NCBI GenBank assembly: GCA_002796325.1
Contig: PCXA01000001.1
Location: 260,838-324,837 of the forward strand
Direction: 5' to 3'
Source of the DNA: Deltaproteobacteria bacterium CG11_big_fil_rev_8_21_14_0_20_47_16
Lineage (GTDB): Bacteria; UBA10199; GCA-002796325; 1-14-0-20-47-16
Length of the DNA stretch: 64,000 nucleotides
Shown here in pieces: positions 2,939 to 53,925 of the stretch. Under the pieces are notes generated by a model, which saw only the letters and a program-made list of their open reading frames with translations, had not been told where the DNA came from and ran no database searches. Both the position numbers and the translations under genes were made by a program. The first letter of the stretch is position 1, and every line of letters begins with the position of its first letter.

Positions 2939-3811
2939 TTGTGGCGATGTCCATTTTGTCAGTGCAACCCCACCAATAATAATGGCGGTGCCAACAAATG
3001 ATTGCCAATAGGGGATGCGATGTAAAAAGAGGGCATCAAGCACAATGGCGACAATGGGATAAAAAAAAGCAGCAGACGCAGTTGTTACGGTGCCCAATGT
3101 TTTAATGAGCTGGAACCAAATGATGTATCCCAAAACGATTACAACTAATGCCAGATATCCCATTGCAACCAGTGTTTGTGTGTCGCTGATTATAGTGGTC
3201 CACGTGGGCCACTTTTCGATGGCACGTGATAATATTGCAAGCATTAAAAATGCCGGGATCCCCTGATAAACAAGCAGTACCGAGCTGCTGACACGTTTTG
3301 TGATGGGATGCAAGATGGGTATGACAATACCAAAACTGATTGACGCACCCAGAATGGCGAGTAATCCCCATAGTTTGGTGTGAGAGTCCACCATTAATCG
3401 TGGTGATAGCACAAAAAGAATGCCGCAAAATCCCAATACGATGCCGATCCACTGTTGAAGGGTGGGTGAGGATGGTCGATCAAATAGTGGTTCAGCGAGT
3501 GTTGCAAAAATAGGGCTTGAGCAAAGAATGATTGCAGCGGGTGCTGGGGCCACTACGGTTTGTCCCCAAAAGATAAGTGCAGAGGGAATGGTTAAACAGA
3601 AAAATCCGGTCATCATGCATCGCATGGCCAGGTGTCCGCGGGGCCAATTGTTGCGATTGGTTTTCCATGCGTAGGGCAAAATCAAGAGTGTGGCGAGGCC
3701 AACGCGAATCATTGCACCAAAAATGGGTGGATAGGCGAGCACGACATAGTGAATGGCGAGAAAGCTGCTTCCTGTGATGAGTATGAGAAGAATGTAGAGG
3801 AGCGTGTTCAT
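2918..3811 (-). CDS. EamA/DMT family transporter
   Basis: Ten TM segments and a duplicated EamA architecture. The longer ORF extension to 3994 is non-membrane and overlaps the upstream gene. ATG at 3811-3809 overlaps the upstream stop as ATGA. Confidence 0.8.
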   Translation of the reverse strand: MNTLLYILLILITGSSFLAIHYVVLAYPPIFGAMIRVGLATLLILPYAWKTNRNNWPRGHLAMRCMMTGFFCLTIPSALIFWGQTVVAPAPAAIILCSSPIFATLAEPLFDRPSSPTLQQWIGIVLGFCGILFVLSPRLMVDSHTKLWGLLAILGASISFGIVIPILHPITKRVSSSVLLVYQGIPAFLMLAILSRAIEKWPTWTTIISDTQTLVAMGYLALVVIVLGYIIWFQLIKTLGTVTTASAAFFYPIVAIVLDALFLHRIPYWQSFVGTAIIIGGVALTKWTSPQSLPSCN

Positions 3812-4173: not shown

Positions 4174-4210
4174 AAGTAATGCCTATTACACTGGCATTTA
4201 TTCGTCAAAA

Positions 4211-4247
4211 TCAAAAGCCCCTGCAACATAGGTTGCAGGGGCTTTTT
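4211..4247 (-). terminator. rho-independent terminator following ssrA exon 2
   Basis: gcccctgcaac / gttgcaggggc stem followed by a U-run on the minus strand. Confidence 0.7.
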
Positions 4248-4841
4248 GTGGAGGTGGGGGGACATGTGTTCCCGCGACTTTCGTTGCGGCATGGACTATC
4301 TCTTCATCCCAAAATCTGGGAGCTCAGCGTATTATGATGGACATAAATTTGCGTTGTCGCAGCATCCATCATCTTACAGTCTCTGCAGGGCTTTTGAATT
4401 TCATTACCCCTCAGGATTGCCCGTCTCTATTGAGGTGTGGGTTTCCCTGATATAAGCCGAGTTTTGCAATGGAAGTTGCCTTCCATGTCGACCAACTGAT
4501 CGAACCCCCGTCCGAAGACCTTTCATGCAATCATCTACGCAAGTAGTCCGTATTTTGTTTGGCAGTTGTAAGCTTCTACGAACAAAATTTTACAACCGCG
4601 AGCCCCGGCATATTCTCGCCAACACGCCCCGAGACAGAACGTGAAAGCCAACCCGCTGTCGGCGGTTCACATCTCCTAGCAGGTGGTCAGAGAGGAACCG
4701 TTAGCAGGGTTTTAGGCTGCTAAGGCAAAGTCAACGTTATCGTTGGCATTTGTGTTTTTTCCCGGCCAGTTTTGCGACTTGATTGGGTTGGTCGTTGCGC
4801 CGATTACACTACGGTGCCCCCGTCGAAACCGGTGCACCCCC
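4248..4841 (-). ncRNA. ssrA: tmRNA (ssrA) interrupted by an intron: exon 1 4499-4841, exon 2 4248-4262
   Basis: 5' end GGGGGUGCACCGGUUUCGACGGGGG resembles the tmRNA tRNA-like 5' end. Tag ORF ...GCC AAC GAT AAC GTT GAC TTT GCC TTA GCA GCC TAA encodes ANDNVDFALAA. Pseudoknot-rich body. The 3' T-arm GGACGGGGGUUCGAU is completed only by exon 2 UCCCCCCACCUCCAC. The spliced product has a 7-nt T-loop UUCGAUU, a 5-bp T-stem, an acceptor pairing with G3:U70, and is 357 nt. Confidence 0.85.
4263..4498 (-). other. group I intron (236 nt) in the tmRNA T-loop
   Basis: Exon U before the 5' splice site pairs as U·G with IGS GGUCGA (P1). The intron ends in G. P2 is a 7-bp hairpin with a GCAA tetraloop. The R-like element CAGAGACUG and S-like element AAGAGAUAGUCC (consensus AAGAUAUAGUCC) form P7. 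Confidence 0.75.
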
Positions 4842-4891
4842 GTCATCTCAATGAACTTCCTCCAGTATAGGATTGACAAGTGTTTCCGGGC

Positions 4892-4920
4892 AAGCAACTT
4901 CTGCTAAGAATTGCCGATAA
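4892..4920 (+). promoter_or_regulatory. sigma-28/FliA-like promoter motif AGCAACTTCT-N10-GCCGATAA
   Basis: -10-like GCCGATAA at 4913-4920, 17 nt before the ATG at 4938. Same bipartite motif as five other sites in the window. Confidence 0.5.
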
Positions 4921-4937
4921 TAGTATGTGGAGGAATT

Positions 4938-6221
4938 ATGTTAAGTGGTGAATTTGGGGATCCAAGATTATTCTTAGAATTCATGAAGTTAGGTGTTGGT
5001 TTGCTTGCGGATCGGAGTGGTGCCTTCCTACCCAAAAGCCGTACCCGTCCCGTGGTACAGGCCTGGCTTGCGCCACACCTGGATTCCTATAAGCAAGACT
5101 CACGGGCTAAGGCAGAGGGAGCTCCCTTTTTGCGTCGTGCGGAAATTGCGCTTTGCACCGGTACGGTGGGCTTCTTTGCACAATCTGCTGCTGCGTTAAT
5201 CGATTCGGTGGGACAGGCACTCACACAAGAAACGCCTGCAAAAGCATTACTGCGTACGGTTGAAGATATTGCGAATAGCACAGTTCATTTAACAGCTGGT
5301 GGTATCCGACTTGTGGTGCATCCCTCCCAAAATGACTATGACAATATGCTTGCCGCGACAGAAATTGCATGGTCGGTCGGTGCAGCTTACTACACAGCTA
5401 AGTCTGCTGGGAATGGAATGAATCAATTTAAAATGCCTGACTTGTCTCCAATGCCTGTCACCACAGATGGTGTGGCAATGGCTTCTACAGGTTTCTTTGC
5501 TGGTGAGAGACCCAATATATTTGCTGGCCCTTTGCTCATGGCCGCAGATGGCTCTGCTCCAAACGCAGTTGACCTTTTAGGAGAAGAGCTAGAGCACTTG
5601 GATCGCACAACTGTAGGACCATCAACTGAAGTTGGTTCGCATATTGTGGGTCCATGGAAAGTGCGTCTGGAAGCGTTACATGAAAGATTAATCTCATTTT
5701 TGGGATTGCGCCCTGATCAAGCCATTGTTGTTGAAATGGGTCCAGGTCCACAACACCGCATGATCAAGACGCTTGCACCAAGGGTGAGAAAATATATTGC
5801 TGTTGAGCCCCAACTATATTGTGCAAAGGCACTCGAGAGGTTGACTAGCAATTTAGAATGGGGAGATCGTCTCATTGTTTTTGGATCAGAGCTTTGGGAT
5901 ATACCCATAAGGACGTTTGCGGAAGGTGGCGCTGATATTGTGTATGCGTCTCATCCGCATCATGCAACCTCCAACAGTTGGGTGGGAATGGGTGTTGCGC
6001 CCCATAATCCCGTAAAATTAATTGATGCCTTAGGTGAAGGTGTTCGTGATGGCGGATTTTTAGTCATTCAAACAGATGATGCGGCATATGCTGCTGCTGT
6101 AACAAGTGGTGCTTCCCGTTGGCGCCCAGTGTTTGTGAAGCAGATCACCGAACCGTTCATGCCATCCATTCATTTTATAGAAACGGATCATATCATCGTG
6201 CTGCAGCGCATGGCTGAGTAG
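4938..6221 (+). CDS. hypothetical protein with C-terminal Rossmann/methyltransferase-like region
   Basis: RBS GGAGG is 7 nt upstream. VVEMGPGPQ...AVEP resembles SAM-MTase motifs I and II. No confident family assignment. Confidence 0.55.
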   Translation: MLSGEFGDPRLFLEFMKLGVGLLADRSGAFLPKSRTRPVVQAWLAPHLDSYKQDSRAKAEGAPFLRRAEIALCTGTVGFFAQSAAALIDSVGQALTQETPAKALLRTVEDIANSTVHLTAGGIRLVVHPSQNDYDNMLAATEIAWSVGAAYYTAKSAGNGMNQFKMPDLSPMPVTTDGVAMASTGFFAGERPNIFAGPLLMAADGSAPNAVDLLGEELEHLDRTTVGPSTEVGSHIVGPWKVRLEALHERLISFLGLRPDQAIVVEMGPGPQHRMIKTLAPRVRKYIAVEPQLYCAKALERLTSNLEWGDRLIVFGSELWDIPIRTFAEGGADIVYASHPHHATSNSWVGMGVAPHNPVKLIDALGEGVRDGGFLVIQTDDAAYAAAVTSGASRWRPVFVKQITEPFMPSIHFIETDHIIVLQRMAE

Positions 6222-6222
6222 T

Positions 6223-6675
6223 TCACCCTCTTTTACGCACAACCCGTGCCATTTCCCGATTGGTCTCACGCTTCTTGATGTCGTCGCGCTTGTCGTGCGT
6301 CTTTTTGCCTGCACCCAATGCCATTTCAATTTTGACACGACCATTTTTAAAATACATCTTGGTGGGAACGAGGGAGAGGCCCTTTTGTTGAAGTTGACCA
6401 ATGAGGCGCTGCAATTCGCGTTTGTGCACAAGCAGCTTTCGCATGCGCATGGGCTCATGGCCGGTGTAGCTGGCAGCCTTGTATTCACCAATGTGGCAAT
6501 TCACCAACCAGAGCTCACCCTTGTGCAACATGCCATAGGCATCGCCTAGGTTGGCTTTGCCGTCACGCAGTGATTTGACTTCGCTTCCCATAAGCACAAG
6601 CCCCGCTTCAAATTTGTCGCTTAAATGAAAGTTAAATCCGGCCTTGCGGTTCAATGAAATGATTTTTTCAGCCAT
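6223..6675 (-). CDS. smpB: SsrA-binding protein SmpB
   Basis: MAEKIISLNRKAGFNFHL...GSEVKSLR...ELWLVNCHIGEYK...LLVHKRE signature and the KKRD-rich tail. Confidence 0.9.
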   Translation of the reverse strand: MAEKIISLNRKAGFNFHLSDKFEAGLVLMGSEVKSLRDGKANLGDAYGMLHKGELWLVNCHIGEYKAASYTGHEPMRMRKLLVHKRELQRLIGQLQQKGLSLVPTKMYFKNGRVKIEMALGAGKKTHDKRDDIKKRETNREMARVVRKRG

Positions 6676-7297
6676 GGGACTTACCAGATACCAAGCCACC
6701 GCTAATAATGAGTTTGGATGCTTCGTCGACAGTGAGTGATGTGGGGATGACATCCTCTTCTTTCACCATCAACAAGTAGCCCGATGTGGGGTTGGGTGCC
6801 GTGGGAATGTAAACGCGAATGAAATGATCATCTGCCATTGCCTCGGGCATTTCGGTTGATTCCCCTGTGACAAACGCAATGGCGTATTGATTTTTGGATG
6901 GAAATTCGACGAGTACGACGCGCGAATATTTGGCGCTCTCTTGGCCAAACAAAGTTTGTAGGAGTTGCTTTAAACCTTTGTAGACTGCATTGCCCACTGG
7001 AATTTGGGAGAGCAGCCAATCACCCGCACGTAGTAGCTGTTTGCCCAGGTAGACGCGGGTTAGAACGCCAACAAACAAAATAATGGGAATAGTGAGGACG
7101 AGCCCCATGCCAGGAACGCTAAATCCAAACCACGCCTTGGGTTGCAGCGCATGAGGAATAAATTGAAAGAACATGTCATCTACGCCGACAACGATTGTTT
7201 TTAAAATCCAAAACGTACCATAGAGCGGCATAATAACGAGCAGCCCTGCGATAAAATATTTTCGAAACAGAAGTTTGAGTGTGCTCCAGAAACTCAT
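6668..7297 (-). CDS. DUF502 family membrane protein
   Basis: Two N-terminal TM helices followed by a conserved soluble domain; overlaps the smpB start. Confidence 0.7.
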   Translation of the reverse strand: MSFWSTLKLLFRKYFIAGLLVIMPLYGTFWILKTIVVGVDDMFFQFIPHALQPKAWFGFSVPGMGLVLTIPIILFVGVLTRVYLGKQLLRAGDWLLSQIPVGNAVYKGLKQLLQTLFGQESAKYSRVVLVEFPSKNQYAIAFVTGESTEMPEAMADDHFIRVYIPTAPNPTSGYLLMVKEEDVIPTSLTVDEASKLIISGGLVSGKSHG

Positions 7298-35648: not shown

Positions 35649-35735
35649 GGAAAGATGGCCGAGTGGCTGAAGGCGCACGCTTGGAAAGCGTGTATACGGT
35701 AAAACGTATCGAGGGTTCGAATCCCTCTCTTTCCG
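35649..35735 (+). tRNA. tRNA-Ser (anticodon GGA)
   Basis: Cloverleaf with acceptor GGAAAGA/UCUUUCC, anticodon loop UUGGAAA, long variable arm, T-loop UUCGAAU and discriminator G. Confidence 0.85.
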
Positions 35736-35775
35736 CAAATACTGTTAACTTTTTGAGGGGAAAAGGAGATGTGTC

Positions 35776-47692: not shown

Positions 47693-47694
47693 TG

Positions 47695-47781
47695 CGGAGA
47701 GGGGGGGATTCGAACCCCCGATACCCGTAAGGGTACGCCTGATTTCGAGTCAGGTACATTCAACCACTCTGCCACCTCTCC
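47695..47781 (-). tRNA. tRNA-Ser (anticodon CGA)
   Basis: Acceptor GGAGAGG/CCUCUCC, anticodon stem-loop CCUGA-CUCGAAA-UCAGG, long variable arm, T-arm GGGGGUUCGAAUCCCCC and discriminator G. Confidence 0.85.
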
Positions 47782-53815: not shown

Positions 53816-53925
53816 AATGGGTGGTCGGGCCCTGTGCAATGAACGGGTGGCGAACCCCGCCAGGCCCGGAAGGGAGCAACGGTACCCGCTTTGGTCATGT
53901 GCCGCAGTCAGCCTGGCTATCCATT
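53816..53925 (+). ncRNA. ffs: signal recognition particle RNA (4.5S/ffs)
   Basis: Domain IV motif CCGCCAGGCCCGGAAGGGAGCAACGGUA, 5'/3' complementarity (AAUGG...CCAUU), and the conserved position immediately upstream of dnaX. Confidence 0.75.

Follow-up and report, generated by a model that had tools for sequence, protein, structure and literature searches.

An ssrA gene split by a group I intron and a flanking LAGLIDADG gene as its possible mobility partner in a 'Deltaproteobacteria' genome

The gene for transfer-messenger RNA (tmRNA), ssrA, occurs in three recognised forms, one of which is the intron form (PMC11915505). The 2025 tmRNA database holds 883 unique intron-form sequences from 21 phyla with the intron at one of four T-loop subsites (2, 3, 7 and 8; in the great majority position 7), corresponding to 0.9 % of unique tmRNA sequences overall, e.g., 159 in Pseudomonadota, 21 in Nitrospirota, 10 of 52 tmRNA genes in UBA10199, 4 in Myxococcota and 2 in Bdellovibrionota; its tmRNA_intron covariance model uses at least 150 bits and at least 500 bp as criteria, and homing endonuclease genes reside inside 36 of the 883 introns (PMC11915505). 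A 64,000-nt stretch from Deltaproteobacteria bacterium CG11_big_fil_rev_8_21_14_0_20_47_16 (contig PCXA01000001.1, positions 260,838 to 324,837; the window hereafter) carries on its minus strand an ssrA gene which is very probably of this form, its T-loop being split by a 236-nt group I intron, and immediately downstream a free-standing gene for a LAGLIDADG homing-endonuclease-like protein. The latter was missed in a preliminary description of the locus and is the more informative feature. An intron-form ssrA accompanied by a mobility partner acting in trans represents the best combined explanation of the locus (probability roughly 0.85); taken by itself, the assignment of the LAGLIDADG gene as this partner, which is drawn from gene content and arrangement, stands at about even odds.

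Such collaborative homing has been documented in two phage systems (PMC3984707), i.e., F-CphI at cyanophage psbA and mobE of phage T4 with I-TevIII (PMC3984707, PMC2790892). As in these systems, the intron in the window would split the target of the endonuclease. The arrangement differs in occurring on cellular chromosomes of several phyla as well as in some phages, in having a structural RNA as host gene and a LAGLIDADG instead of an HNH or Endo VII-type protein, and in that homing is a prediction here.

The ssrA gene (4841–4249, 593 nt with the insert) begins with the acceptor 5' strand GGGGGUG (4841–4835). Exon 1 further comprises the tag frame, the pseudoknot body, the T-stem 5' strand and T-loop bases 1–6 (UUCGAU), and ends with ...GGACGGGGGUUCGAU, the last base being 4499. 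Exon 2 supplies the last T-loop base, the T-stem 3' strand CCCCC, the acceptor 3' strand CACCUCC and the discriminator A; since CAA follows next, the CCA tail is not encoded. Joining of both exons yields the T-loop UUCGAUU, the T-stem GGGGG/CCCCC, the wobble pair G3:U70 (GGGGGUG with CACCUCC) and a mature tmRNA of 343 + 14 = 357 nt. The predicted junction of the ligated RNA is ...GGGGGUUCGAU joined to UCCCCCCACCUCCA, and the corresponding DNA of an uninterrupted T-arm would read ...GGACGGGGGTTCGATTCCCCCCACCTCCA... The preliminary description had already recognised the tRNA-like 5' end, the ANDNVDFALAA frame and the pseudoknot body on the minus strand, the stop of the T-arm at 4499, its partner at 4262–4249 next to a terminator, and the joined 3' end with its 5-bp T-stem and G3:U70; Rfam (112 bits), ARAGORN and the coordinates bear this out.

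The Rfam tmRNA model matches at 4833–4497 (112 bits, gathering score 47), exon 1 alone being scored and the positions of the 3' T-stem and acceptor appearing as deletions in the alignment. ARAGORN reports no tmRNA in the 64-kb window and none in the unspliced ssrA region, and calls one (tag ANDNVDFALAA) once 4263–4498 is deleted. An intact tmRNA 3' end elsewhere, which the preliminary description had named as an observation that would speak against a split gene, is absent from the 64 kb: there is no second copy of the 3' exon (one unrelated match with 2 mismatches) and no other tmRNA (single Rfam tmRNA match). The same 593 nt are present with 100 % identity in three independent metagenome assemblies; thus, the split is real and not an assembly artefact.

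Four orthologous loci that have diverged to 92 % identity retain the split. Loci L084, L085 and L086, found via the neighbouring open reading frame (ORF), show the synteny panC, amidohydrolase, DUF502, smpB, ssrA and contain inserts of 233–237 nt at the same site, and a fifth relative (L176) has likewise kept the intron; in all of these, ARAGORN calls a tmRNA only after removal of the insert. The tag is the same or the near-identical ANNNVEFALAA. An intron-less allele was not found inside the clade, the only uninterrupted gene being that of the nearest outgroup L178 (same synteny, SmpB 61 % identical). Its tmRNA (6581–6934), missed by ARAGORN, has the T-loop GGCAGUA instead of UUCGAUU, and neither intron nor LAGLIDADG ORF is present; this T-loop may mark an allele that resists cleavage, or it may have been left behind when an intron was lost imprecisely. 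A genome scan with SmpB retrieved no close relative (at most 59 % identity) and no related intron or ORF in any of 80 loci, which served as a small control set only.

The intron is inserted after the sixth T-loop base (UUCGAU|intron|U) and ends with G4263. The Rfam model Intron_gpI spans the insert over its full length (model positions 1–253) with 44.8 bits (E 4.3e-10, 751 nt searched; gathering score 50); the covariance search proposed in the preliminary description thus returned a full-length match, but not a score above threshold. The orthologous introns of L084 (54.5 bits) and L176 (50.4 bits) pass the gathering score, those of L086 (48.8 bits) and L085 (47.8 bits) stay below it. The Rfam group I intron seed contains no bacterial introns (10.1101/2020.01.27.920355). 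Since the score of the window intron by itself was inconclusive, related introns were gathered through the neighbouring ORF, and the fold was examined in an alignment of 33 distinct related tmRNA introns, about 30 of them distant ones from a metagenome scan. RNAalifold recovered from this alignment the exon T-stem across the intron, P1 with its U.G pair, P2 to P6, a P7.1 helix and P9; P7 was added to the consensus as a pseudoknot before pairs were counted. Paired cells amount to 98.7 %, as compared to 78.7 % in shuffled alignments and 35–47 % with partners slid, 30 of 50 pairs show compensatory changes, and the covariation score is 0.553 versus 0.165 in shuffled alignments and no more than 0.122 with slid partners; none of 500 shuffles reached the observed values. 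P3, P4, P5, P6, P7 and P9 are paired in 91–100 % of the introns, while U(-1), its U.G pair, the terminal omega-G and the GNRA loops on P2 and P9 are each present in 33/33. The exon T-stem covaries across the intron as well (column 3/371: GC 17, CG 15, UA 1). The hallmarks listed in the preliminary description (U.G pair at the splice site, terminal G, P2 hairpin with GCAA loop, P7) are as described there, and its assignment to group I is now backed by covariation. Judged from sequence and covariation, the insert is a group I intron with an intact core.

Between P7 and P3', a single hairpin is present in the window's clade and two in the other introns of the family; this clade is a compact branch of the tmRNA intron family. 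In scoring P1, position 7 fits all 37 introns; splice subsites 2 and 3, proposed for some loci, were rejected because they arise only from GGGGG T-stems. A 2291-nt intron reported by the detector for L105 proved false, L105 being a standard tmRNA. The introns of L088, L089 and L092 escaped Rfam at E at most 1e-3, yet they align and covary with the family, so that absence of an Rfam match is not evidence of absence.

Following the group I mechanism, a primary transcript reaching from about 4857 to the terminator near 4205 would carry the 236-nt ribozyme, in which the guide GGUCG (4493–4489) would pair with exon CGAU plus the first intron base, placing the U.G pair at the 5' splice site. Exogenous guanosine would attack after U4499, G4263 would then take the G-site in P7 (4383–4378 with 4297–4293), and exon ligation would restore acceptor stem, T-stem and the T-loop UUCGAUU. 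Processing by RNase P and addition of CCA would then complete the 357-nt tmRNA, with SmpB as its partner. The tmRNA intron of Clostridium botulinum is cited as self-splicing (PMC2729099), and by analogy the intron of the window probably splices in vivo. Since ssrA has no uninterrupted 3' end, production of tmRNA depends on splicing. In this structural respect the preliminary description was right, but the dependence of trans-translation on splicing is common to the whole gene form and hence not special to this locus.

In comparison to known intron-form genes (founding case C. botulinum), the window gene shares T-loop position 7, in agreement with the definition of this form, the U(-1)-G pair in P1, the terminal G, the 7-nt loop restored on removal and, as in more than 95 % of them, the lack of an internal ORF. 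It differs in the length of the intron (236 nt versus a mean of 293 nt in the founding set), in the one hairpin between P7 and P3' instead of the two of related introns, and in a host known from a Crystal-Geyser-type 'Deltaproteobacteria' metagenome-assembled genome (MAG) rather than from Bacillota; gene plus intron measure 593 nt, the smallest reported being 545. An endonuclease gene located outside the tmRNA gene is an arrangement not described in PMC11915505. Introns in anticodon loops are likewise small ribozymes that lack an ORF, interrupt a loop of a tRNA-like domain and form a short P1 in which nucleotides of that loop take part; the present intron differs by its T-loop site and by IA-like peripheral helices between P7 and P3'. 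The preliminary description had considered a tmRNA intron in such a lineage unusual, these introns being known from clostridia; with 883 intron-form sequences in 21 phyla including UBA10199 (PMC11915505), this claim fails, and the gene adds one member to a known form, if it is not, as is probable, catalogued already.

The LAGLIDADG ORF starts 75 nt past the tmRNA discriminator, beyond the terminator and outside the intron, and begins with MTKTDLAYIAGIIDGEG. Pfam LAGLIDADG_3 matches it with 21.8 bits (cutoff 22.5). Its motif YIAGIIDGEG contains D14, G15, E16 and G17, which are invariant across the family. The ORF has 172 homologs, typically of 135–150 aa, and the family profile matches I-MsoI, I-CreI and I-CvuI as well as I-AniI and the bI3 maturase. 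For a full-length relative, the AlphaFold2 model (P0002; predicted local distance difference test score, pLDDT, 93) matches I-CreI-type structures with probability 1.00 and a template modelling (TM) score of 0.76–0.80, and predicts the core fold with its four-stranded DNA-binding sheet. The family thus shares with I-CreI, I-MsoI and I-CvuI the single motif, the conserved acidic residue and the alpha-beta-beta-alpha-beta-beta-alpha core, and differs from this group in length (about 135 versus 152–170 aa), in a C-terminal LTPRNGRY motif and in being mostly not intron-encoded. The copy in the window has suffered an in-frame deletion of 11 residues, a block (KKxxGxGxIxx) which the alignment shows in all homologs; in its AlphaFold2 model, beta1, beta2 and beta4 are present while the end of alpha2 and all of beta3 are missing, and hence the model lacks the four-stranded sheet of the I-CreI-like fold. 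The same 121-aa sequence occurs on contigs from four sources, and thus the deletion is real.

Ahead of the ORF, the block TTTTGATTTTGACGAA is conserved in all four ORF-bearing relatives and absent from L176, which lacks the LAGLIDADG ORF and whose sequence diverges right after the terminator. The relatives read TTGACG-17 nt-TATAA(A/G) with the start codon 6–7 nt further on, while the -10 position in the window reads TAGGCA; TTGACG and the -10 element may represent the promoter of a LAGLIDADG cassette. At its 3' end the ORF runs into an EamA transporter gene, stop and start codon sharing ATGA (3808–3811, minus strand), and the damaged ORF may persist partly by carrying the translation start region of EamA.

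The genomic association of this ORF family with tmRNA genes is solid. In L088 (Desulfonispora), L092 (a Clostridium MAG) and L089 (a gammaproteobacteria-like MAG), the ORF lies just past the 3' end of a position-7 intron-form ssrA, outside the intron and in tandem or convergent orientation; likewise, in the seven informative contexts reached via close or named homologs the ORF adjoins an intron-form ssrA, except for L087. A metagenome survey yielded 80 loci of the ORF family, 47 of them informative, and in about 45 of these 47 a tmRNA gene adjoins the ORF (within about 200 nt). About 34 loci (about 72 % of the informative ones) are intron-form, as compared to 0.9 % of unique tmRNA sequences. 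The detector assigned 30 of the 80 loci to the intron form, with the ORF 44–203 nt outside the gene in 28 and inside the intron (P7–P3') in 2, and a further three loci are split at the same T-loop site. Overall, a free-standing ORF beside an ORF-less intron is found in 28 metagenome loci, 6 other loci and the window. In permuted genes (L173, phage Lacusarx), the ORF abuts the 5' end, i.e., the end encoding the T-arm. The homolog of Sphingobium phage Lacusarx (L175, NC_041927.1, 74324–75212) overlaps the 5' end of the annotated permuted ssrA and is annotated as 'HNH endonuclease' while actually LAGLIDADG-like, a misannotation shared by several phage homologs; no tmRNA is annotated within 2 kb of the homolog in Caulobacter phage CcrRogue. 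In the accessible literature (subscription journals being outside the scope), only PMC11915505 links tmRNA with LAGLIDADG proteins, and for intron-internal genes only; both this study and the 2026 survey of tRNA introns (PMC13011429) restricted their search for endonuclease genes to the interior of introns.

The closest relatives of the window intron outside its clade, those of L116 and L098, both have the ORF internally (P7.1/7.2), which suggests that within a single intron lineage the ORF has changed place between the interior and the flank. In L094 (1–970), a LAGLIDADG ORF probably lies inside an intron with a proper 3' exon (TCCCGCCACCTCCACCA). What precedes ...TTCGAT has the look of protein-coding sequence and not of tmRNA; a chimeric assembly or an ectopic copy may account for this locus.

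Uninterrupted tmRNA genes adjoin the ORF in ten loci and a permuted one in a single locus. A canonical T-loop is present in 2 of 9 uninterrupted tmRNAs beside the ORF versus 7 of 7 SmpB-selected controls, all of which lack the ORF, both samples being small and phylogenetically non-independent. The unusual T-loops include ATCAACA, TGCGACT, ATCATTC and TTCAAGT, among others. In L117 (1879–2268), the T-loop is canonical and a TAG stop interrupts the LAGLIDADG motif of the ORF. The ORFs of L141, L148 and L157 (2501–2893) meet a stop after 64 aa. All four of these loci have an uninterrupted tmRNA, are dense in tRNA genes and look phage-like, and their ORFs are either pseudogenes or read with a recoded stop codon.

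With the intact canonical T-arm as target, which carriers would have to disrupt, such a pattern of altered T-loops and broken ORFs is to be expected. In the proposed mechanism, a homodimer-type endonuclease would cut the DNA of the uninterrupted tmRNA T-arm around TCGA; the pseudo-palindromic character of this DNA (GGGGG-T-TCGA-TT-CCCCC) would suit a homodimer. The intron would split the target and so protect its carrier, and in the repair of cut alleles, intron, 3' exon, terminator and ORF would be copied as one block. Activity and target of the endonuclease are predictions from motif, fold and site, the target being indicated indirectly by the position of the ORF, which is always at the T-arm end, and by the altered T-loops of uninterrupted neighbours. 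After fixation the endonuclease gene would decay, the intron having to stay since any imprecise removal would cost ssrA its function. Corresponding states are found among the relatives: an intact ORF in L084, L085 and L086, the window copy without 11 residues, and L176 with the intron and no ORF. This series looks like the endonuclease cycle of invasion, fixation, decay and loss. A tentative proposal, placed slightly below even odds, reaches beyond this locus: several bacterial phyla and some phages would share a dedicated family of small, homodimer-type LAGLIDADG genes that flank tmRNA genes at their T-arm end and mobilise ORF-less T-loop introns in trans.

Several points weigh against an intron-form ssrA mobilised in trans. 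The cleavage site is putative, splicing of the window intron is deduced from the group I mechanism and its sequence, and the Rfam score of this intron lies under the gathering score. As the ten loci with uninterrupted tmRNA show, the ORF can be carried without the intron, and the sampling of the T-loop comparison counts here, too. No tmRNA is found near the ORF in L124 and L161 despite good flanks, and neither tmRNA nor intron within 5 kb of it in L087 (5001–5411); L087 is a contig of C. botulinum, the species in which tmRNA introns were first described. Moreover, divergence of the ORF tracks that of the host exon (rho 0.70) as well as that of the intron (0.68). Since the pairwise ORF, intron and exon identities all correlate (rho 0.68, 0.70 and 0.57), the co-transfer test does not discriminate and gives no positive signal of joint transfer.

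Some of these points are also those that would be expected from a selfish gene homing alone to the ssrA flank (intronless homing) with the intron co-occurring incidentally, namely the ORF beside uninterrupted and permuted tmRNA genes and the missing joint-transfer signal, to which the cassette boundary right after the terminator in L176 may be added. Against incidental co-occurrence stand the intron form in about 72 % of informative ORF loci versus about 1 % of tmRNA sequences, and the altered T-loop or broken ORF seen in most uninterrupted neighbours; intronless homing is considered unlikely. A maturase, kept near ssrA to aid folding or splicing of the intron, would account for the strong association of the ORF with intron-form genes, and LAGLIDADG maturases exist, with bI3 and I-AniI among the profile matches. 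Against this stand the ORFs beside uninterrupted and permuted tmRNA genes where there is nothing to splice, the invariance of the catalytic acidic residue, the conservation of the intron with compensatory changes in ORF-less L176 and in the window with its damaged ORF, and the C. botulinum intron, cited as splicing without protein. A maturase function thus appears quite improbable. Even less credible is an ssrA pseudogene with a dead intron remnant or other insertion, trans-translation being lost or served elsewhere: the low Rfam intron score and the missing ARAGORN call would fit, but the catalytic core is complete, with all its helices, U(-1), omega-G and the GNRA loops undamaged and covarying; covariation also links the two strands of the exon T-stem on either side of the intron, exons, intron and tag frame persist in five diverged relatives, and smpB is intact. 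An assembly artefact, or an island scar with a duplicated ssrA 3' end as might be expected at a common integration site of islands such as the tmRNA 3' end (PMC11915505), can be dismissed, since the insert is identical in three independent assemblies, measures only 236 nt, folds as a group I intron and is accompanied by a single 3' exon copy in 64 kb and by neither integrase nor direct repeat of the 3' end.

Table 1 Features of the ssrA locus with their coordinates in the window
Feature	Position	Strand	Basis or remark
LAGLIDADG homing-endonuclease-like gene, free-standing, 121 aa	3808..4173	-	Pfam LAGLIDADG_3, homologs, AlphaFold2
TTGACG, -35-like element of the LAGLIDADG cassette	4203..4208	-	within TTTTGATTTTGACGAA
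ssrA intrinsic terminator, 15-bp hairpin + U-run	4205..4246	-	fold -26.7 kcal/mol, z -6.9
ssrA exon 2, 14 nt, U-CCCCC-CACCUCC-A	4249-4262	-	read from sequence
Group I intron, 236 nt, no ORF, T-loop position 7	4263-4498	-	Rfam RF00028, covariation
P1	4502-4498/4493-4489	-	CGAU|C with GGUCG; U.G at splice site (U4499.G4492)
P2	4486-4480/4475-4469	-	AUGGAAG-GCAA-CUUCCAU, GCAA loop
P3	4461-4456/4328-4323	-	intron helix
P4	4450-4445/4416-4411	-	intron helix
P5	4441-4440/4421-4420	-	intron helix
P6	4410-4406/4391-4387	-	intron helix
P7	4383-4378/4297-4293	-	GAGACU/AGUCC
Single peripheral hairpin	4373-4334	-	between P7 and P3'
P8	4321-4307	-	read in window clade only; MAFFT shifts register there
P9	4288-4283/4278-4273	-	GAAA loop
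Omega-G	4263	-	intron 3' end
ssrA exon 1, 343 nt	4499-4841	-	Rfam RF00023 112 bits; ARAGORN tmRNA on joined exons
Tag reading frame GCC...TAA, ANDNVDFALAA + stop	4712-4747	-	ARAGORN, tmRNA positions 95-130
Promoter-like site TTGCCC-18 nt-TATACT	4864..4893	-	consensus scan, 9/12 matches
smpB, protein partner of tmRNA	6223..6675	-	Pfam SmpB E 1.3e-56; upstream, same strand

The promoter-like site ahead of ssrA is a consensus match only, its -10 element ending 23 nt ahead of the tmRNA 5' end. The terminator hairpin, followed by UUUUGAUUUUG, was missed by a simple consensus scan for terminators and confirmed by folding, and its stem shows compensatory changes among four relatives. The product of smpB is named SsrA-binding protein (Deltaproteobacteria bacterium CG11_big_fil_rev_8_21_14_0_20_47_16) by NCBI. 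Between smpB and ssrA, an ORF of 436 aa without Pfam match is located on the opposite strand (4911–6221, plus); since ssrA directly follows smpB in L084, L086 and L176, this ORF looks like a lineage-specific insertion. Other RNA genes of the window are a small bacterial signal recognition particle RNA (53823–53921, plus) and two tRNA-Ser genes (35649–35736, plus; 47694–47781, minus) with the anticodons GGA and CGA.

For genome annotation, the locus illustrates that ARAGORN misses the split gene, while Rfam truncates the tmRNA match and scores the intron below threshold, so that genomes of this kind can appear to lack ssrA or to possess a truncated copy. The intron itself is one more catalogued instance, and the flanking endonuclease gene matters more. 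If a LAGLIDADG family located outside the T-arm end indeed acts in trans, this would explain why tmRNA introns occur in 21 phyla although an internal endonuclease gene is missing from more than 95 % of them. The surveys PMC11915505 and PMC13011429, having found few intron-internal genes, concluded limited mobility, a conclusion that would then need revising for tmRNA introns. The states encountered, i.e., ORF external, ORF in P7.1/7.2 (L098, L116), ORF decaying (window) and ORF lost (L176), would give the endonuclease-invasion model of the origin of mobile introns a naturally occurring series, and collaborative homing would gain a widespread cellular example with testable intermediates.

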